Below, piece by piece: positions 8,461-54,710 of a DNA stretch of 64,000 nt (positions within the stretch are counted from its first letter, which is position 1; every line of letters begins with the position of its first letter). This DNA is from Escherichia phage moha, in the sequence record MN850590.1; one strand, 5' to 3'. The notes under the pieces were generated by a model, which did no database searches, was not told the origin of the DNA, and saw only the letters and a list, made by a program, of their open reading frames with translations. The position numbers were made by a program, and so were the translations under genes.

Positions 8461-8483
8461 GGGGACTTCGGTCCCCTTTTTTC
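8461..8483 (+). terminator. intrinsic terminator after rIIB
   Basis: GGGGAC-TTCG-GTCCCC then TTTTTTC. Confidence 0.7.
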
Positions 8484-8496
8484 TTTAGGGGTAATT

Positions 8497-8800: not shown

Positions 8801-9277
8801 ATGAAGGTTAAGATCGCTGATACTGCTCGGTACTCGTTGAAACAAGATCCAGGTCAAATAAAAGAAGACGTTGTTCGACGTTGTAAGGTTGCAGTCTTTG
8901 CAGAGTATGTAGTAGCAAATTGGCTAGACGGATATGTTAATAAAGGTAATGAAGACGTAGAAGACCCGTACACGTATGCATGGGACGTTTTAGCTCATCC
9001 TAAGTACTGTGGTCTACGCGTAGAAGTAAAGACCCATCAGATGGATTCGAAATGGATTTCGGTTACCACAGGATACGGTGGTGATTATCCGGGTGGCAAC
9101 GGAATAAACATAGGGCCCTTCCTTAATCATCGAGTCGCTGACTGTATTATTATATTGAATGTCAAAGAAACCTCACCTGACGTCTTCTCTTATTCTATAA
9201 AGTTTGTGGGAGACCATGAAGACCTAAAGAAAATCGTCCGCAAGAGCAACTACAACGGGTGGTATCTTCATCTTTAA
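8801..9277 (+). CDS. hypothetical protein (T4 denB-position; identity unconfirmed)
   Basis: Listed ORF 8657..9277; N-terminal 48 codons look out-of-frame-like and overlap the upstream ORF, so start placed at ATG 8801 (159 aa). Confidence 0.45.
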   Translation: MKVKIADTARYSLKQDPGQIKEDVVRRCKVAVFAEYVVANWLDGYVNKGNEDVEDPYTYAWDVLAHPKYCGLRVEVKTHQMDSKWISVTTGYGGDYPGGNGINIGPFLNHRVADCIIILNVKETSPDVFSYSIKFVGDHEDLKKIVRKSNYNGWYLHL

Positions 9278-9289
9278 TTTCATAAAAGT

Positions 9290-9319
9290 GTTTACAACTA
9301 AGTAGGACTATGATATATT
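9290..9319 (+). promoter_or_regulatory. early promoter: -35 GTTTAC, -10 TGaTATATT
   Basis: GTTTAC 9290-9295, TATATT 9314-9319; palindrome TAGGACTA/TAGTCCTA 9303-9326. Confidence 0.5.
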
Positions 9320-9345
9320 AGTCCTATCTAAAAGAGGATAACATC

Positions 9346-9609
9346 ATGAAATTTAAATTTTTCTACGCAAAACATAAAGTAACAGGCGAATTTGTTTCAA
9401 TGTACAACACTGCAGATGACGAAGGGATGATTTATACCCATTTGGGTCTATCTCATTGGGACTCAGACGTGCCTTATATGTCATCTGAAGCCGAAATAAC
9501 TCGTTTAGTTAACGGACATATGAACGACCATTTTAGTGTTATTCTTTCTAAAGACCTTAAAGAGGTTATCAACAAAGGATATATGGAACTTGCGGAAGTT
9601 GAGATATGA
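9346..9609 (+). CDS. hypothetical protein
   Basis: 87 aa ORF with GAGGA RBS downstream of early promoter. Confidence 0.55.
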   Translation: MKFKFFYAKHKVTGEFVSMYNTADDEGMIYTHLGLSHWDSDVPYMSSEAEITRLVNGHMNDHFSVILSKDLKEVINKGYMELAEVEI

Positions 9610-9692
9610 GCTCTAAAATGTGGATCGGAATATGGTTGCTTAGTATCCCTATGATTTGTATAATATTTTCAATTGCATTGAGGTACTTATGA
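9606..9692 (+). CDS. hydrophobic micro-protein (28 aa)
   Basis: ATGA start/stop overlap with upstream ORF; MSSKMWIGIWLLSIPMICIIFSIALRYL is a plausible single TM helix; below ORF-track cutoff. Confidence 0.35.
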   Translation: MSSKMWIGIWLLSIPMICIIFSIALRYL

Positions 9693-9796
9693 AAAATGCA
9701 CTTATTGTATTAAGAACAATTTGTGATACGGGTTTTTACATTGCATGTTCGTTCACTGGAACATGGATGGCTTTAACATATTTTAATGTAATTTAA
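9689..9796 (+). CDS. hydrophobic micro-protein (35 aa)
   Basis: ATGA overlap with preceding micro-ORF; MKNALIVLRTICDTGFYIACSFTGTWMALTYFNVI. Confidence 0.3.
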   Translation: MKNALIVLRTICDTGFYIACSFTGTWMALTYFNVI

Positions 9797-9798
9797 TT

Positions 9799-9828
9799 GT
9801 TTACATCACGGTAGGATTATGGTATAGT
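9799..9828 (+). promoter_or_regulatory. early promoter: -35 GTTTAC, -10 TGgTATAGT
   Basis: GTTTAC 9799-9804, TATAGT 9823-9828; palindrome GTAGGA/TCCTAC 9811-9836. Confidence 0.5.
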
Positions 9829-9856
9829 AGTCCTACTGAAACATGAGGAACACAAA

Positions 9857-10057
9857 ATGGCTAAGCTTTTTAAAGATGTTGAAATTGGTGAAAAATTTGT
9901 TCTGAATAATGGTCAGCAGCTTATTCGTGTAGCTTCTATCGCCGGACAAACTCATAACTGTATCGCCCCAACGTGTTGGACTCGATTCTTTATTGAAGAT
10001 GACACTGAATGTTTAACTGTTGAAGAGCTTTTTGAACGTTCTGATATGACCGAATAA
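9857..10057 (+). CDS. hypothetical protein
   Basis: 66 aa ORF with GAGGAA RBS after early promoter. Confidence 0.55.
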   Translation: MAKLFKDVEIGEKFVLNNGQQLIRVASIAGQTHNCIAPTCWTRFFIEDDTECLTVEELFERSDMTE

Positions 10058-10060
10058 AAT

Positions 10061-10089
10061 TGTACAAACTCTTGAGAGCAGAGTATAAT
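10061..10089 (+). promoter_or_regulatory. early promoter: -35 TGTACA, -10 TATAAT
   Basis: TATAAT 10084-10089; palindrome GAGAGCA/TGCTCTC 10074-10095; upstream of ndd. Confidence 0.5.
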
Positions 10090-10133
10090 GCTCTCATGGA
10101 TTACAAAAACATTAATCAATTGAGGAAATTAGC

Positions 10134-10580
10134 ATGTCCAAATATTTAACTCGTAAAGACCTTCTGGCAGTTGGCGGTGAAGTTGTTGCAGTAGTTCGTA
10201 ATGGCGAATACGGTTCTGAAGTTTCTAAAGAGTTTCGTTCTCGTGAAGGTTTTTACTTCTTCGTTAAAGGTTCATCTGATTGGCGACAAGTAGCAGCACG
10301 ATTCTTTGTAGGACGTCAACGTTCTAAACAAGGGTTGGATGCAATTCTTTCTCACATTCGTCAAGGCCGTTCGCAACTAGCCCGTACCATGGGCACTAAC
10401 AATATTGAATATGATGTAATCTTTGTTGCAGCTAAGAACATGAAACCACTGACCACTGGTTATGGTAAAGGTCAATTGGCTCTGGCATTCACTCGCAATC
10501 ATACATCAGAATATCAAACACTCACCGAAATGAACCGTCTTCTGGCCGATAATTTCAAATTCATTCTGCAGAGTTACTAA
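10134..10580 (+). CDS. ndd: nucleoid disruption protein Ndd
   Basis: 148 aa; strong recalled similarity to T4 Ndd ([11 protein letters not shown]...[14 protein letters not shown]...LADNFKF); position between rIIB and 52. Confidence 0.85.
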
Positions 10581-10632
10581 TTTATACGGACCTATTAAGT
10601 TGGGCCTTTAATTTATTTTTGAGGTAATTAAA

Positions 10633-10779
10633 ATGGTAGCATGGATTATTGCATTGCTGTGTTGGTCGTTTTTATTCGTTAACACTTTAGTTACGGGCGA
10701 AACAACAGTATTTCAACAGGCCGTATCACAAGGTACCTTAGCGGTCTTAGCTCTTATTAACGTGTTAAAAGGCGAGTAA
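10633..10779 (+). CDS. small membrane protein (T4 ac-position)
   Basis: 48-codon ORF, hydrophobic (MVAWIIALLCWSFLFVNTLV...); not in ORF track. Confidence 0.35.
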   Translation: MVAWIIALLCWSFLFVNTLVTGETTVFQQAVSQGTLAVLALINVLKGE

Positions 10780-10920
10780 TGATTAAGAAAATCTTAGCAG
10801 GAGCCTTCGGGCTCTTGTTGTTGCTTACGGTTCTGTACTACGGTGTGATGTTTGGACTAATCCAAGTAGTGCTTTTCATTTCAGATGTTATAATGGTTAT
10901 TCGTTCATTAATATGGTGAA
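10780..10920 (+). CDS. small membrane protein
   Basis: 46-codon ORF immediately following, hydrophobic (MIKKILAGAFGLLLLLTVLYYGVMFGL...); ends 3 nt before gene 52. Confidence 0.35.
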
Positions 10921-10923
10921 AAT

Positions 10924-12249
10924 ATGCAATTGAATTCTCGTAATCTAAAAAGTATTATTGATAACGAAGCCTTAGCATATGCGATGTACACCGTTGAAAA
11001 CCGTGCAATCCCAAACATGATTGATGGATTTAAGCCGGTTCAACGTTTTGTGGTCCATCGTGCGTTAGATTTGGCTCGTGGTAATAAAGAAAAATTTCAT
11101 AAACTTGCGTCAATTGCAGGCGGTGTTGCAGATTTAGGTTATCACCATGGTGAATCTTCTGCACAAGATGCAGGTGCATTGATGGCTAACACATGGAACA
11201 ACAACTATCCACTGTTAGATGGCCAAGGCAACTTTGGTTCTAGAACAGTCCAAAAAGCTGCAGCATCTCGTTATATTTTTGCTCGTGTAAGTAAAAATTT
11301 CTATAACGTATATAAAGATACTGAATATGCTCCAGCTCATGAAGATAAAGAACACATTCCACCAAAATTTTATCTTCCTATTATTCCGACAGTTCTTTTG
11401 AATGGCGTCTCTGGTATTGCAACCGGTTACGCAACAAATATTCTGCCTCATAGTTTTAAATCAGTCAAAAAGGCTGTATTACAAGCTCTTCAAGGTAAAA
11501 ATGTCACTAAGCCAAAAGTTGAATTCCCGGAATTCCATGGCGAAGTACATGAAGTTGATGGGCGTTATGAGATTCACGGAACATATAAGTTCACATCTCG
11601 CACTCAAATGCAGATAACTGAAATCCCATATAAATTCGACCGTGAAACGTATGTGAGTAAGGTTCTTGACCCATTAGAAGATAAAGGTCTAATCTCATGG
11701 GAAGATGATTGTGGTGAACACGGCTTTGGGTTTAAGGTGAAGTTCCGTAAAGAGTACTCGCTTCCAGATGACGAAGAGCTACGTCATGAAAAAATCATGA
11801 AAGATTTTAGTCTCATCGAACGTCGTTCACAAAACATCACAGTGATTAATGAAAAGGGTAAATTAGCGGTCTACGATAATGTAGTAGACTTAATCAAAGA
11901 TTTTGTTGAAGTCCGTAAGACTTACGTTCAGAAACGTATTGACAACAAAATCCTTGAATCTGAAAAAGCATTTAAACTGGCTTTTGCTAAGGCGCACTTC
12001 ATCAAAAAAGTTATCAACGGTGAAATTGTGATTCAGGGCAAGACTCGTAAAGCTTTGACTGAAGAGCTAGCACAAATCGAAATGTATAAAGAACATGTCG
12101 ATAAACTGGTAGGTCTTAACATCTTCCATATCACTTCCGACGAAGCACGTAAACTAGCAGAAGAAGCTAAAGCTAAGAAAGAAGAAAATGAGTATTGGAA
12201 GTCTACTGATGTTGTGACAGAGTACACTAAAGACTTGGAGGCACTTTGA
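10924..12249 (+). CDS. 52: DNA topoisomerase II medium (GyrA-like) subunit
   Basis: 441 aa (T4 gp52 442 aa); GyrA-like N-terminal motif RAIPNMIDGFKPVQRF. Confidence 0.9.
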   Translation: MQLNSRNLKSIIDNEALAYAMYTVENRAIPNMIDGFKPVQRFVVHRALDLARGNKEKFHKLASIAGGVADLGYHHGESSAQDAGALMANTWNNNYPLLDGQGNFGSRTVQKAAASRYIFARVSKNFYNVYKDTEYAPAHEDKEHIPPKFYLPIIPTVLLNGVSGIATGYATNILPHSFKSVKKAVLQALQGKNVTKPKVEFPEFHGEVHEVDGRYEIHGTYKFTSRTQMQITEIPYKFDRETYVSKVLDPLEDKGLISWEDDCGEHGFGFKVKFRKEYSLPDDEELRHEKIMKDFSLIERRSQNITVINEKGKLAVYDNVVDLIKDFVEVRKTYVQKRIDNKILESEKAFKLAFAKAHFIKKVINGEIVIQGKTRKALTEELAQIEMYKEHVDKLVGLNIFHITSDEARKLAEEAKAKKEENEYWKSTDVVTEYTKDLEAL

Positions 12250-12435: not shown

Positions 12436-13068
12436 ATGTCTAAAGTTACTTACATCATCAAAGCTTCTGAAAACGCTCTGAATGAAAAAACTGCTGCAAT
12501 AATGGTTTATATCATTAAGAACAACTTCACCACTGCTGCCAATGTCCGTGAAGCTCTGGAAGCGGAATACAATGCATCAGTTGTTAACTCTAACATTGGT
12601 GTATTGATTAAGAAAGGTTTAGTCGAAAAATCCGGTGATGGACTTATAGCAACAGGCGAAGCAATGGATATTATCCAAAAAGCTGCAGACCTATTTGCTC
12701 AAGAAAATGCTCCAGAACTTCTTCAGAAACGTAACACCAGAAAAGCACGTGGAGTTACTCCTGAAATGCATGAACTAGCAAACTTTGTTTTTGAAAATAT
12801 TAAAGATAAAGTTGAAGTTAAAGAAATTGGTGAAAACCGTAGTAACTTAGAAGTTCGATTTGCAAAACGAGTTCTAGGTATTCGTCAGATCGAAATTCGT
12901 CGAGATGGCGCTCTTAGAATCTTTGCATACAACATGTCAGAAACTGAATCAAAACTGTTTACTTCTCTTGAAAATGATGTTAAGATTAAGATCGGTGGTA
13001 AATATACTTACATTGACTTCCCTAATGTGTCCAAAGAAATCATTACCCTTGTAACTAACGTACTGTGA
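12436..13068 (+). CDS. motA: middle-transcription activator MotA
   Basis: 210 aa (T4 MotA 211 aa); N-terminus MSKVTYIIKAS and NIGVLIKKGLVEKSGDGLI match recalled T4 MotA. Confidence 0.9.
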   Translation: MSKVTYIIKASENALNEKTAAIMVYIIKNNFTTAANVREALEAEYNASVVNSNIGVLIKKGLVEKSGDGLIATGEAMDIIQKAADLFAQENAPELLQKRNTRKARGVTPEMHELANFVFENIKDKVEVKEIGENRSNLEVRFAKRVLGIRQIEIRRDGALRIFAYNMSETESKLFTSLENDVKIKIGGKYTYIDFPNVSKEIITLVTNVL

Positions 13069-29477: not shown

Positions 29478-29540
29478 TTTATAACAAGATAGGGCTACTA
29501 TAACATAGCCCTATCAAATAAAAGTGAAGAGGAGAATAAA

Positions 29541-35954: not shown

Positions 35955-35983
35955 TTTACATACCACAAGGATTGTGGTACAAT
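35954..35983 (+). promoter_or_regulatory. early promoter upstream of rnlA: -35 GTTTAC, -10 TGgTACAAT
   Basis: GTTTAC 35954-35959, TACAAT 35978-35983; palindrome CCACAA/TTGTGG 35963-35977. Confidence 0.5.
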
Positions 35984-36002
35984 TTAAAAAAAAACTAACT
36001 GA

Positions 36003-38329: not shown

Positions 38330-38544
38330 CTAAAGAACAGCATGAATACATTAAAGGGCTTATCTATGAATCTGAAATGGCGGCTATGATTTATGGACGC
38401 CAGATTCAACGATTAGAATCTTTGCCTCCGACTAATGACCGCTTGTTAGTTCAGTCTCGTGCTAATCTGAAAAATGAATATCAGAATAAGTGGGCAGTAG
38501 CGACTAAAGCTCTTCATGAGTATATTGAATCTTTAGTAAAATAG
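38320..38544 (+). CDS. hypothetical protein (pseT.1-position)
   Basis: 74 aa ORF. Confidence 0.5.
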   Translation: MPMTKEQHEYIKGLIYESEMAAMIYGRQIQRLESLPPTNDRLLVQSRANLKNEYQNKWAVATKALHEYIESLVK

Positions 38545-38573
38545 TTTACAAACTCTCGGGAGCAGAGTATAAT
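38544..38573 (+). promoter_or_regulatory. early promoter: -35 GTTTAC, -10 TATAAT
   Basis: GTTTAC 38544-38549, TATAAT 38568-38573; palindrome GGAGCA/TGCTCC 38559-38578; near-copy of promoter at 10061. Confidence 0.5.
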
Positions 38574-38601
38574 GCTCCTATGGATAATTGAGGAAATCTA
38601 A

Positions 38602-38900
38602 ATGAAAACATTACTAGAGAATTACATCAAACGGTCTGATGAGTATATTGATATCTGCCGTGGAATGACACTTGTAGATTATGACAAAGATGCAGCAAAG
38701 GCACTAGATGAAGCAGGTAAAGCTCTTCGTAAAGCTGCTAAAGAAAAAGGGTTGGATTTGCAACAACTCAAAAGTCATATGATTAAATTTATTTCTTCAA
38801 ACGTTAGAAGTACGTCAATTAATAAAAACGTTGCTGAAATTAATAAAGACCGGCGCGAACTCAACATTCGTATTCTTGAAGCTTTCTTAGGAATCAAATA

Positions 38901-38901
<1 letters not shown>
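38602..38901 (+). CDS. hypothetical protein
   Basis: 99 aa ORF with GAGGAA RBS after early promoter. Confidence 0.55.
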
Positions 38902-39988
<1,087 letters not shown>

Positions 39989-40668: not shown

Positions 40669-40691
40669 TGGTTTACAACGCGGTGGAGTTG
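40662..40691 (+). promoter_or_regulatory. early promoter: -35 GTTTAC, -10 TGaTATGAT
   Basis: GTTTAC 40662-40667, TATGAT 40686-40691; imperfect palindrome 40673-40701. Confidence 0.45.
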
Positions 40692-40729
40692 TGATATGAT
40701 TAACTCTACCGACAAATGAGGAAATCGAA

Positions 40730-43051: not shown

Positions 43052-43056
43052 TTTTA

Positions 43057-43081
43057 GGGAGACTTCGGTCTCCCTTTTGTG
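43057..43081 (+). terminator. intrinsic terminator after small basic ORF
   Basis: GGGAGAC-TTCG-GTCTCCC then TTTTGTG; same hairpin sequence as the gene 32 terminator. Confidence 0.7.
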
Positions 43082-43111
43082 CGTTTAGGGCAGAAAAAGT
43101 TTAAAAAAAAT

Positions 43112-43555: not shown

Positions 43556-43584
43556 GTTTACTTTGGTACAGGTTATGTTATTAT
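43556..43584 (+). promoter_or_regulatory. early promoter: -35 GTTTAC, -10 TGtTATTAT
   Basis: GTTTAC 43556-43561, TATTAT 43579-43584; 9-bp palindrome GGTACAGGT/ACCTGTACC 43565-43595. Confidence 0.5.
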
Positions 43585-43625
43585 AGACCTGTACCAACAA
43601 ACAACTTAAACATCTGGAGAATAAA

Positions 43626-50825: not shown

Positions 50826-50834
50826 ACCCCTAAA

Positions 50835-50857
50835 GGGAGACAACGTCTCCCTTTTTC
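50835..50857. terminator. terminator hairpin between convergent + ORF and gene 54
   Basis: GGGAGAC-AAC-GTCTCCC then TTTTTC. Confidence 0.55.
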
Positions 50858-51820
50858 TTATAGTCCTAAAACTCTTGACGCTGAATTCACCACACCTGTC
50901 AATGTGTTTATATTAGACACGCCACCAGCAGTCCCACCTAATCTAGAAAGTCTTGATACTGCACTTCCTAGCCCAGAATCATTCTGATTATTTCCAAACA
51001 TTCCTGAAACACTACTAATAAGTCCTGATTCCAGCCATTCTAAAGCAGCCTGTCTATTTACAGCACCTGATTGCATAACGCGATAAGCAAATGTTACGTC
51101 AAAAACTGTTATCTGATTATCACCATCATACGTTAACTCAGGAGAAGAGACACTAACAGGAATACATCCAGTGAACATGACAGCGGTATGTGGTAAACCA
51201 TTTCGTGCATGTAAATTAACCTGAATATCTGCTTCGACGTCTTGTGGTAAAGCACGAAGACCTGTTACAGGGTCTTGGACCGAGTTTACCCAGTCTTGCA
51301 TTGCTCTAAAGTTAGATGCTTCAGAATCCATTCTAAAGCTTATTACTAACGGGTCCATTTCACGGCCGGTAATTCGGATGTTCGGTGAGTTATAGTTGAA
51401 ATCCGTTTCATAAGATAATCGGTTCTCAGGCATTTTTACAGAATAAATCATTAAACCTGTATTATTATATGCCATATTGAAGAAGTCTATCAGATAAGCT
51501 CCTACTGTGAACTCACCTAACAAGCTTTGTACCGTACGTTGACTCATTGCTCCAATCAGATATTTACTTATACCTGATTTTCGAATTAATTTCTGTGTTC
51601 CTGCTGTAATCAGGGTTGTTACGCCCTGATTGATATCACCTTGAGACAATCCTAGCCAATCTGAATCCAACCCTAAGTTATTATAAGCAAAACTACCAAT
51701 TGACGAAATTAGTGAAGACGATTTGGTTGATGGTGTAGTAGCAAATACACAACTAAACATATTGTTTCGTTGGAAATCTGCATTTATAGCTTGGTTATTA
51801 AATTCTTCTAAAGAGTACAT
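50858..51820 (-). CDS. 54: baseplate tail-tube initiator gp54
   Basis: 320 aa = T4 gp54; synteny. Confidence 0.8.
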   Translation of the reverse strand: MYSLEEFNNQAINADFQRNNMFSCVFATTPSTKSSSLISSIGSFAYNNLGLDSDWLGLSQGDINQGVTTLITAGTQKLIRKSGISKYLIGAMSQRTVQSLLGEFTVGAYLIDFFNMAYNNTGLMIYSVKMPENRLSYETDFNYNSPNIRITGREMDPLVISFRMDSEASNFRAMQDWVNSVQDPVTGLRALPQDVEADIQVNLHARNGLPHTAVMFTGCIPVSVSSPELTYDGDNQITVFDVTFAYRVMQSGAVNRQAALEWLESGLISSVSGMFGNNQNDSGLGSAVSRLSRLGGTAGGVSNINTLTGVVNSASRVLGL

Positions 51821-52937: not shown

Positions 52938-54710
52938 TTAATTAACACCGGTGGCATGGAAAATTCCAGGAGCCGTTGTACTTGTTACAGGGGTCATATT
53001 CTGGACTACGGTATTCTTTTTGACGACATTATTTGTGTTACTAATCGCCGTTACCGGTTGTTGTTGTTTAGACTCAGAAGCACGTCCTTTCTCTATTGAC
53101 TGAACTTGTTTTGCTTCCGGAGATTTAGACGAAGATTCAGGCTTAACTGTTGTCTGAGCTTTTTTGGCTTCAGCCATTTTATTATTTAGCTTTTCAAATC
53201 TAGCATCTAATTCCTTTTTAATAACAGGAGTTTTATTAAGTTCAGGGTCTTTAATAAGTTTACTTAAATCAGCATAAGACTTCTCGACGTTTTTAGCATT
53301 TTCCGGATTAGTCATATCGATTTTATCGATATAATCCTCAAATCTAACTAGTGCCGCACGAGTTTCATTAGCTTTTATATACGCCTCTTTACGCTCCTCT
53401 TCAGGTAACTCTTTTAATTTTGCTGATTCCGCAGCACGCTCATCGCTTGTACTAAACTCTTCTTTATTGTCATTACCACGAACCCAGTTAGTAACGAATG
53501 TTTTGCCGCGTTGTAACATATCAAGACCTTTAGAAACGGTTCCTAATTCCCCATCGTCACGTTTCATTTGATATTTAGCGACTTTCTCTTGGTCTTCTTT
53601 CTTTAATTTGTTCCCAGTAGTTTCTTGGAATCCTTCTAAAGCACGTCCTTCTATTTCGTCCGCGGTATCGCCAAAACCTATAGCACGCAATATAGACGCA
53701 GAGAGTTTAGCCATTCCTAATTGAATTAGTTCACCTAAGTTCATTAATGCTGTTCCTACACCTTTGACAATAGCAACGGTTAAACCACCCCAGTCTCCAG
53801 CTTCCCACAATTGTTTTATCGAGTCAATAGAAGTGAATATATCACTTAAGAATTTGCCCCACTCTTTAGCTTCATCGGAGAATTTAGTAAAGTTTTCATC
53901 AAATAAATCCCAGGCAGAAGTGAACTTGTCTGTCCAATATTTGAAATGGACTATCAATAAATCAATACCGATAACAATACCAAGAATAAGTGCGGCCATT
54001 TTTGCTGCTTCAATAGCAGCCGTTATAGTGTATTTGAAAAGCATTCCAGCAATTCTGTCTGAAATTGATATTGATTTATTAAACCCGGTTTGAACTGTTT
54101 TGGTGAGCATTGCAATTTTATCGCTCAATTTAAAGCTAATTCCGCCTTTAGAATCGGAAGTAGAATTAGCACTTTCTTGAACCGGTGCTGGGAAGAAATC
54201 TTCGTCTGGTTTATTATCAATCTTTTCAGGTGTAGGGAATGCTTTAAACAACTCATCAGAAGTTTCATTCTCAACCACTTTAACAGGTATTGCGTTCTCA
54301 ATTACTTCAAGAGAGGTGCCTCCTGTATTTTGAATAGCGGTAGATGTTTGTAATTTTTGCTCTAATAATGTAGCTAATCGGTCTAACTTAGAGCTTATTG
54401 CACTAGAAACTTCGTTTATACTTTTAGTGACTTCAGTTTGTTTTTCAATAACTTCTGCGATAAGCTCTGTGCCTTCAGCAGTATTATCTGACGAATTCTT
54501 TAAGTCTCCAATTGATTCAATAATTCCATTGCCTTTATCTTCTACACTTTGTGATGTGAGTTCAGACGCGGCTTGGACATCGTCTAGTTTTGATGAAATG
54601 TCATTCAATGCTTCTAATGAATCGGTAGCTGCTGTTGCAGCTACTTTTTGTGGTTTATTATCGGCAATGACCTTATTTCTACGCATGGATTTCATTTCTT
54701 CAGGTTTCAT
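52938..54710 (-). CDS. 29: tail tape-measure / baseplate hub protein gp29
   Basis: 590 aa = T4 gp29; synteny. Confidence 0.8.
   Translation of the reverse strand: MKPEEMKSMRRNKVIADNKPQKVAATAATDSLEALNDISSKLDDVQAASELTSQSVEDKGNGIIESIGDLKNSSDNTAEGTELIAEVIEKQTEVTKSINEVSSAISSKLDRLATLLEQKLQTSTAIQNTGGTSLEVIENAIPVKVVENETSDELFKAFPTPEKIDNKPDEDFFPAPVQESANSTSDSKGGISFKLSDKIAMLTKTVQTGFNKSISISDRIAGMLFKYTITAAIEAAKMAALILGIVIGIDLLIVHFKYWTDKFTSAWDLFDENFTKFSDEAKEWGKFLSDIFTSIDSIKQLWEAGDWGGLTVAIVKGVGTALMNLGELIQLGMAKLSASILRAIGFGDTADEIEGRALEGFQETTGNKLKKEDQEKVAKYQMKRDDGELGTVSKGLDMLQRGKTFVTNWVRGNDNKEEFSTSDERAAESAKLKELPEEERKEAYIKANETRAALVRFEDYIDKIDMTNPENAKNVEKSYADLSKLIKDPELNKTPVIKKELDARFEKLNNKMAEAKKAQTTVKPESSSKSPEAKQVQSIEKGRASESKQQQPVTAISNTNNVVKKNTVVQNMTPVTSTTAPGIFHATGVN

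Follow-up and report, generated by a model that had tools for sequence, protein, structure and literature searches.

The closest described relatives of the element analyzed here are the promoter-early stem-loops (PeSLs) of T4-type phages (Arbiol et al. 2010, Genome Biol Evol 2:140, PMC2839356; Comeau et al. 2014, Genome Biol Evol 6:1611, PMC4122927). In phages RB49 and phi1, a PeSL consists of a stop codon, an A/T-rich stretch, a promoter, a stem-loop, a Shine-Dalgarno sequence, and an ATG; the published stem-loops are described as “overlapping the -10 box” and drawn with G-T pairs, crossovers were mapped inside PeSLs, and one RB49-type stem-loop, the sole stem so tested, cut expression of a downstream lacZ as strongly as rrnB T1 (PMC2839356). 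In the sections of the 2014 paper drawn on here, PeSLs are extended to PST/T4, with the stem motif AGNA-loop-TCNT, and to nt-1/KVP40 (PMC4122927). The present analysis concerns two candidate elements of this kind in a 64,000-nucleotide (nt) stretch of Escherichia phage moha (MN850590.1), referred to in its entirety as the window: site 1, upstream of ndd, and site 2, upstream of a 99-amino-acid (aa) open reading frame (ORF). In both, an inverted repeat brackets the -10 box of an early-type promoter, and compensatory substitutions in many copies from several genera have kept its arms paired.

Judged from the sequence, the two sites have the architecture of PeSLs, a kind of element known since 2010, and they display those of its structural features that can be tested. 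Both are intergenic. Site 1 lies between ndd.1 (9857-10057, with the stop at 10057) and the ndd ATG at 10134, as defined by the ORFs and the annotation of relatives; the promoter of site 2 is immediately adjoined by the TAG stop (38542-38544) of a 74-aa pseT.1-like ORF and is followed by an ATG at 38602. The -35 and -10 boxes, which in PeSLs are about 17 nt apart (T-even variant, TTTACW N17 TAYWAT), appear here as TGTACA or TTTACA N17 TATAAT. They match the sigma-70-type consensus at 10/12 positions at site 1 and 11/12 at site 2, each being the top match of its neighborhood in a promoter scan; neither site has a MotA box, and both read as early-type promoters. The upstream stretches, AATAAAAT and AGTAAAATAG, are A/T-rich like those of PeSLs, the stem-loop (8 base pairs [bp] at site 1 and 6(+1) bp at site 2, supported by covariation) overlaps the -10 box, and a Shine-Dalgarno sequence and a start codon stand at the 3' end of both sites. 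Like PeSLs, the copies are genomic repeats associated with indels and exchanges and located beside small ORFs without known function; the ORFs flanking the two sites have PHROG matches solely to families of that description.

Differences from the published PeSLs were found as well. The stems in the window are not G/C tracts. According to a figure legend of the 2014 paper, the T4/PST stems stand “just upstream” of the promoter (PMC4122927), whereas those of the window and of T4 bracket the -10 box. The T4/PST motif AGNA-loop-TCNT, as given in that paper, fits window stems such as TAGGACTA...TAGTCCTA. Term searches of the 2010 paper returned no mention of RB69-like phages and neither “compensatory” nor “covariation” (PMC2839356), and no covariation or strand-asymmetry analysis was seen in the portions of the 2014 paper covered here (PMC4122927). 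The absence of runs of T residues (T-runs) and a stem that ends at +1 were not found in the covered portions of the two papers (PMC2839356, PMC4122927), nor did two standard T4 reviews, when searched by term, refer to early promoters as having inverted repeats, palindromes, or hairpins (PMC3014915, PMC2988021). Sequences that match the other common PeSL class occur at 35955-35985 in the window and, in T4, in L016 around 2434 and in L017 around 949 (minus strand); two T4 promoters carry CCACAAGGATGTGG.

Two copies of one promoter cassette

A sequence-only reading of the window had picked out the two promoters as paralogs, and their relationship is borne out: past a 16-nt indel, the similarity resumes at the Shine-Dalgarno region AATTGAGGAAAT (12/12), which is followed by ATG at both sites, and sites 1 and 2 are the only matches in the window to their 18-nt core (expected, 0.03) and to a 38-nt pattern that leaves the arms free (expected, 0.00). 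The promoter strings quoted in that reading are both present, ∼4 nt to the right of the intervals assigned to them (caaactctt...atgga at 10065-10100 and caaactctc...atgga at 38549-38584); the intervals themselves begin at or beside the -35 hexamers (10061, 38545). The compensatory A-to-G and T-to-C change that it reported is real, with A10075-T10094 at site 1 corresponding to G38559-C38578 at site 2. The accompanying statement that the stem is kept intact applies to this pair, but other differences weaken the stem of site 2: C10095 is replaced by T38579, which turns a G-C pair into G.T, and T10073 by C38557, which turns T-A into C.A. The site 2 stem thus consists of GGAGCA/TGCTCC (6 bp), the wobble G38558.T38579, and the terminal mismatch C38557.A38580.

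The two copies differ at 4 positions in all, and 2 of these fall on the compensatory pair. The chance that 2 of 4 differences occupy both sides of one stem pair is 0.07, or 0.23 if only the arms and flanks vary, so that one double change between two copies, which had been presented as direct evidence of selection, is insufficient alone. Nor is the expression “-10 palindrome” apt, because the -10 hexamer itself is nonpalindromic; the repeat brackets the -10 box by means of the free positions of the spacer and the discriminator. At site 1, the first base of the right arm is the final T of the -10 box, and the last is the probable +1 purine.

Compensatory changes across the wider family

A query of viral contigs with the Ndd protein yielded only three near-identical loci, and DNA patterns with free arms were therefore used to collect copies. 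The pattern ACAAACTCT-N8-GAGTATAAT, in which neither arm is specified, was searched for in public viral and metagenome contigs. The matches with a T4-type left arm made up alignment A1, whose 45-nt sequences (25 distinct ones, from several genera) contain 19 different arm pairs. Members of this family sit upstream of ndd, motB (including that of T4 itself), a 197-aa ORF, a 110-aa ORF, the 99-aa ORF, and others.

Standard pairs occupy 98.5% of the cells of alignment A1. Five of the eight pairs are changed on both sides (GC/AU; AU/GC; GC/CG/UA; CG/UA), and the observed pairing or covariation score was reached by 0/500 shuffles. When the register was shifted by 1 to 3 columns, pairing amounted to only 36-53%, and in the negative control, made up of 24 sites in unrelated contigs that match the flanks by chance (23 distinct arm pairs), it amounted to 26%. 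Double changes separate orthologous promoters. For example, the ndd promoter has GAGAGCA/TGCTCTC in the window and GGGGTCA/TGACCCC in locus L044, and the promoter of the 197-aa ORF has GAGAGCA in L071 and GGGAGTA/TACTCCC in L027. The T4 motB promoter, of the same family as sites 1 and 2, reads GGGACCA gagtataa TGGTCCC. In the site 2 orthologs of three loci (L011, L037, and L053), A replaces G38558, converting the wobble to A-T for a total of 7 Watson-Crick pairs.

The tabulation of paired substitutions in related copies that the sequence-only reading had proposed was thereby carried out, and the covariation in 25 distinct sequences, evidence that the reading did not have, supports its view that base pairing across the -10 element is under selection.

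Stems with unrelated arms at other early promoters

A motif scan of the window revealed an inverted repeat around the -10 box of most consensus early promoters, with arm sequences that are unrelated to one another (Table 1). The hairpin at 40681-40711 is the ortholog of that of the T4 cd.2/cd.3 early promoter, and the one at 43563-43597 is the ortholog of the T4 30.7 promoter hairpin. T4 promoters were defined by motif; the RefSeq T4 record has no promoter features. Among them, the dmd promoter has a 14-position helix in which 10 bp are perfect and G.T wobbles lie at the outer end, the mobD.2 and ipII promoters have stems of 14 bp each, and stems that straddle the -10 box are also found at cd.3, 30.7, and motB. 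The loop ranges from 8 to about 17 nt, always containing the -10 box, and the arms always lie in the sequence-free spacer and discriminator.

Across 39 strict promoter matches (window plus 150 kb of T4), the best stem straddling the -10 box had a mean length of 5.15 bp, compared with 3.47 ± 0.20 bp after the right flanks were permuted among the promoters (maximum of 300 permutations, 4.03); stems of at least 8 bp numbered nine, against 0.5 expected. When a scan for promoters with a TGGTATAGT -10 region was added, bringing the total to 446 distinct sites over all loci, at least 7 Watson-Crick pairs were present in 19% of the sites versus 3.8% after permutation. Predicted RNA hairpins were more stable than shuffles at 5/6 of the promoters folded (z, -2.1 to -4.2), the exception being site 2; site 1 folds at -14.6 kcal/mol (z, -4.18), and 0/200 shuffles were equally stable. 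A chance palindrome in one promoter, copied by duplication and bearing a fortuitous paired difference, might have been entertained from the two window copies and the probability of 0.07-0.23 given above, but it is refuted by the stem excess over permutation, the family covariation, and the 26% pairing in controls and is left with next to no credibility.

Table 1. Positions and sequences of the promoters, hairpins, and associated translation signals in the window
Feature	Position	Strand	Description
Site 1 early promoter	10061-10089	+	-35 TGTACA 10061-10066, 17-nt spacer, -10 TATAAT 10084-10089
Site 1 hairpin	10073-10096	+	Left arm TGAGAGCA 10073-10080, loop GAGTATAA 10081-10088, right arm TGCTCTCA 10089-10096; 8 bp
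ndd Shine-Dalgarno GAGGA and ATG	10122-10136	+	Not part of site 1 hairpin; ndd ORF 10134-10580
Site 2 early promoter	38545-38573	+	-35 TTTACA 38545-38550, 17-nt spacer, -10 TATAAT 38568-38573
Site 2 hairpin	38557-38580	+	(C)GGGAGCA 38557-38564, loop GAGTATAA 38565-38572, TGCTCCT(A) 38573-38580
99-aa ORF, function not assigned	38602-38901	+	Shine-Dalgarno GAGGA at 38590; predicted to be driven by site 2
Promoter hairpin	9303-9326	+	-10 TATATT at 9314; TAGGACTA / tgatatat / TAGTCCTA
Promoter hairpin	9809-9838	+	-10 TATAGT at 9823; CGGTAGGATTA / tggtatag / TAGTCCTACTG; two T.G wobbles
Promoter hairpin	40681-40711	+	-10 TATGAT at 40695; CGGTGGAGTT / 11-nt loop / AACTCTACCG; one G.T
Promoter hairpin	43563-43597	+	-10 TATTAT at 43579; TTGGTACAGGT / 13-nt loop / ACCTGTACCAA; 11 bp

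Several further arrangements were noted at promoters. At 75-131 in the window, an early promoter (TTTACT 75-80, TATTAT 97-102) is located inside an 11-bp long-range stem, CTCCTCTGGTT (82-92) / AACCAGAGGAG (112-122), the right arm of which is the Shine-Dalgarno sequence of a 174-aa ORF that starts at 129 (PHROG, function unassigned). The early promoter of T4 regB is laid out alike (L017, around 12720-12790, minus strand). In both cases, read-through RNA would be predicted to mask the ribosome-binding site, and only promoter-proximal transcripts would be translatable. Within the cd.2-cd.3 early promoter, 14 bp are described by the RefSeq record of T4 as the “inverted complement of previously reported sequence” (L018 14397-14410; T4 133300-133313). 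This stretch spans the -10 box and the loop of the cd.2/cd.3 hairpin (GGTAGAGTT...AGCTCTACC), and the stem-flanked loop could be a place where a flip or a sequencing misread occurs. A 10-bp stem at 29488-29515, GATAGGGCTA / ctataaca / TAGCCCTATC, follows gtagTTTATA and has a -10-like TATAAC in its loop at off-consensus spacing; it may be a degenerate or nonearly member of the same architecture. Finally, in 12 loci of another T4-like lineage (L106, L107, L111, L113, L125, L127, L135, L187, L188, L191, L198, and L208), the sequence after the -10 box, TGGTATAG-TACTCCTACAC[C/A]AACA, is conserved at many promoters with or without a complementary left arm in the spacer and is thus conserved for a reason other than pairing.

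Mismatch asymmetry points to the sense strand

The imperfect pairs discriminate between the molecules that could form the stem. Among the distinct arm pairs of the family, the non-Watson-Crick combinations, read on the sense strand, are 19 G.T versus 2 A.C, whereas the chance matches that served as family controls contain 18 G.T and 21 A.C. Internal mismatches in all stems, detected regardless of type, show the same pattern, with 26 G.T and 5 A.C, compared with 16 and 17 in permuted controls. The antisense strand of alignment A1 would pair in only 87% of the cells. Neither a duplex site nor a cruciform would be expected to distinguish G.T from A.C, and the G.T excess therefore indicates a hairpin in the sense strand alone. 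We infer that selection acts on a hairpin formed by one strand, the sense strand, and most likely in RNA, because G.U is nearly neutral in RNA and because the left arm stays duplex in the open promoter complex.

The asymmetry bears directly on the possibility of a duplex operator, in which a dimeric phage or host protein would bind half-sites across the -10 box and repress or activate the promoter. Dyad symmetry over the -10 box and a conserved family core are what such a site would be expected to offer. However, tolerance of G.T but not A.C is meaningless for duplex recognition, the loop length varies, and the arms covary instead of keeping a half-site consensus; several arm sequences coexist in one genome (GAGAGCA, GGGAGCA, TAGGACTA, GGTACAGG, and others), both in the family and at other promoters. 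An operator is accordingly extremely improbable.

Probable exchange of cassettes between genomes

The window belongs to a T4-type phage of the RB69-like genus Mosigvirus. Its region 9000-12000 shares 98% identity with many genomes of that genus, and for the site 2 region, identity to phage APCEc01 reaches 100%. Two copies of the cassette are present in the window and four on a single 167.6-kb Mosigvirus-like contig, OBCQ01000004.1 (L028, L042, L049, and L071). The segment 38545-39092, which contains the promoter and hairpin of site 2, the 99-aa ORF, and the next ORF, of 63 aa (38901-39092), lies between pseT.1 and pseT; it is absent from T4, in which the two genes abut (L018 15099-16232), and matches to Tequatrovirus genomes end at 38537, just before the site 2 element. 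From these boundaries, the segment looks like an insertion of a PeSL-plus-ORFan cassette.

Chimeric cassettes were found at four loci (L068, L021, L092, and L042). For example, the ndd-type arms of L068 follow a degenerate -35 box and run into the downstream part of the 110-aa-ORF cassette, and L021 and L092 have the upstream flank in common and differ in their downstream halves. The chimeric structure of these loci implies crossovers inside the element, and copies within a genome are more alike than orthologs, indicating concerted evolution. Together with the cassette that T4 lacks, these features would fit PeSL-mediated shuffling.

Another possibility is that the pairing is not selected at all, the arms being corrected by template switching in quasi-palindromes and both arms being moved together by gene conversion. 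Templated mutation in quasi-palindromes is classical, well-documented T4 biology, within-genome copies are more alike than orthologs across genera, and the chimeric cassettes demonstrate that blocks containing both arms do move together. Nevertheless, we consider this account quite improbable. Many independent promoters have stems of unrelated sequence in the same position, far above the level for permuted flanks; at least 5 different pairs are changed on both sides; and the imperfect states are almost solely G.T and persist over many loci, where a strand-blind correction predicts otherwise. Template switching may supply double changes but leaves the existence and persistence of the stem unexplained.

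A proposed boundary element in read-through RNA

Taken as a whole, the element is best read, in our judgment, as a PeSL-type promoter/stem-loop cassette that serves as an intercistronic RNA boundary element and also as a recombination patch, a reading that we hold to be probable, if only modestly so. Each cassette combines a strong early promoter of the sigma-70 type with an inverted repeat and ends in a Shine-Dalgarno sequence and a start codon. One arm of the repeat occupies the spacer (-23 to -16) and its partner the discriminator (-7 to +1), which leaves the -10 box in the loop. In alignment A1, the final stem column is always a purine, 7 nt past the -10 box, and is the probable +1. Because the right arm ends at about +1, transcripts from the cassette's own promoter would lack the hairpin, which would form solely in read-through RNA from upstream genes. 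The function that we infer for the hairpin in such RNA would be to attenuate read-through, to stop 3' exonucleases, or both, with the result that each small gene cassette would be expressed from its own promoter. The overlap with the promoter would reflect the intergenic space, which at about 60-80 nt from stop codon to ATG offers no other free positions, and the conserved ∼60-nt cassette would double as a homology patch through which recombination spreads and homogenizes the copies.

A number of observations weigh against this reading. No promoter hairpin is directly followed by a T-run (within 0-2 nt); the tails are A-rich, those of sites 1 and 2 being ATGGATTACAAA and ATGGATAATTGA. A terminator scan did not call sites 1 and 2 on either strand, and in the two stretches scanned, no promoter hairpin of the window was called on the plus strand. 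The RNA fold of site 2 is weak (-12.2 kcal/mol; z, -1.29) and not more stable than shuffles. Such a stem is present at no more than a third to a fifth of the early promoters and is thus not obligatory. The G.T excess could be inflated by a T bias of the sense strand, given that four-fold degenerate sites in the plus-strand ORFs of the window are T-rich (T, 2323; A, 1283; C, 560; G, 494), a skew that may arise from codon preference or from a mutational bias linked to transcription; with the T/A ratio as the null, the excess has p = 0.015 and 0.007, values obtained from copies that are not phylogenetically independent. No T4 3'-end or terminator map was found in the literature searched. Finally, hairpins without a T-run are essentially confined to promoters, which also fits a role at the promoter DNA.

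The hairpins could also be ordinary intrinsic (Rho-independent) terminators of the upstream genes. The authors who described PeSLs call their stem-loops effective terminators, and the RB49-type stem that lowered lacZ like rrnB T1 is G/C-rich (PMC2839356). In the window, by comparison, canonical plus-strand terminators with G/C-rich stems, 3-4-nt loops, tetraloops among them, and T-runs are present elsewhere (8461-8486, 43056-43083, 50832-50860, and 54625-54652) and look quite unlike the promoter hairpins, whose 8-13-nt loops and 6-8-bp stems with several A-U pairs are atypical; the hairpin at 9303-9326 was called by the scan on the minus strand only. The missing T-runs and the missing calls, in a genome in which canonical terminators exist, make efficient intrinsic termination unlikely, and plain terminators are a very improbable explanation of the family.

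A DNA structure could account for the confinement to promoters, either a hairpin of the non-template strand or a cruciform that forms transiently. Such a structure would modulate the promoter, for instance by exposing the -10 box as a single strand or by contributing to the shut-off of T4 early promoters that sets in a few minutes into infection. The -10 box is always in the loop, and tolerance of G.T on the sense strand suits non-template DNA equally with RNA; moreover, two reviews call the mechanism of T4 early-promoter shut-off unknown (PMC3014915, PMC2988021). On the other side, the portions of the 2014 paper drawn on here report degraded PeSLs that retain the -35 box and the stem-loop without the -10 box (PMC4122927). 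The loop of 8 to about 17 nt has no fixed geometry relative to the polymerase, and G.T, nearly neutral in RNA, is clearly destabilizing in DNA. In the open complex, the left arm (-23 to -16) remains double stranded, as established by structures of RNA polymerase, and the hairpin is therefore unable to coexist with that complex. Arms of 6-8 bp with 8-13-nt loops form cruciforms poorly, and a cruciform needs pairing on both strands, which is contradicted by the G.T/A.C asymmetry. A DNA structure thus appears improbable.

A broader extension of the RNA boundary element can be formulated, although it is unlikely and is offered as speculation. The hairpin straddling the -10 box could be a general discriminator of transcript origin, allowing the phage to treat messages from the cassette's own promoter and read-through messages differently, by pausing, processing, decay, or, in long-range variants such as 82-122 and T4 regB, masking of the ribosome-binding site. 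Were this true, the discriminator would reset expression at every cassette. More remote still is a version in which the same hairpin in the non-template DNA strand takes part in the unexplained shut-off of early promoters.

Two specific processing signals were considered and dropped. The GGAUUA after the hairpin resembles the RNase E consensus RAUUW, as compared with the -71 region of T4 gene 32, but the family also has GGAUAA and GGAGUA. A candidate RegB site, GGAG, is present in the left arm of site 2 only, where it would lie within the stem. In Rfam, no family reached its gathering score anywhere in the whole window.

Implications

The spacer and the discriminator of many very strong T4-type early promoters hold a second, structural code that is maintained by compensatory change and readable on the sense strand only. 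The PeSL stem-loop gains a comparative basis that was not found in the covered portions of the two descriptive papers (PMC2839356, PMC4122927), and the results argue against a plain terminator or a protein operator. No new field is opened, the PeSL-type element having been known since 2010. Nevertheless, those who use or mutate T4-type early promoters, or predict operons and terminators in T4-like genomes, should expect that the same sequences can be RNA structures in read-through transcripts and hot spots of cassette exchange.

Comparison with known systems

Hairpins that enclose a promoter have precedents of several kinds. In the N4 virion RNA polymerase promoters and in Frpo of the F plasmid, promoter elements are embedded in a DNA hairpin. 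There, either a dedicated polymerase recognizes the hairpin as such or the hairpin forms the duplex promoter, whereas sites 1 and 2 carry an ordinary sigma-70 duplex promoter, with the open complex of which the hairpin would be incompatible.

Hairpins of the T4 genes e, soc, 49, and I-TevI reportedly contain a promoter and, in read-through RNA, make the ribosome-binding site inaccessible, in accounts attributed to McPheeters 1986, Macdonald 1984, Barth 1988, and Gott 1988. The likeness lies in the promoter within the hairpin and in the division between proximal transcripts, which lack the 5' arm, and read-through transcripts, which fold; the stem at 82-122 would be such a case. The T4 hairpins differ in that the Shine-Dalgarno/AUG region itself forms their 3' arm, and most of the promoters are late ones. 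In the hairpins of sites 1 and 2, the 3' arm stops at +1; a further 12-28 nt separate it from the Shine-Dalgarno sequence, which is unpaired in the predicted folds, so that translational masking is inapplicable there.

The intercistronic hairpins of the REP and malE-malF types are barriers to 3' exonucleases in operons of E. coli. They have no sequence relationship with the hairpins of the window, which are, in addition, fused to a promoter. In both cases, however, a hairpin without a T-run stands between cotranscribed genes, and by analogy the mode of action proposed for the hairpins of sites 1 and 2 would be the same.

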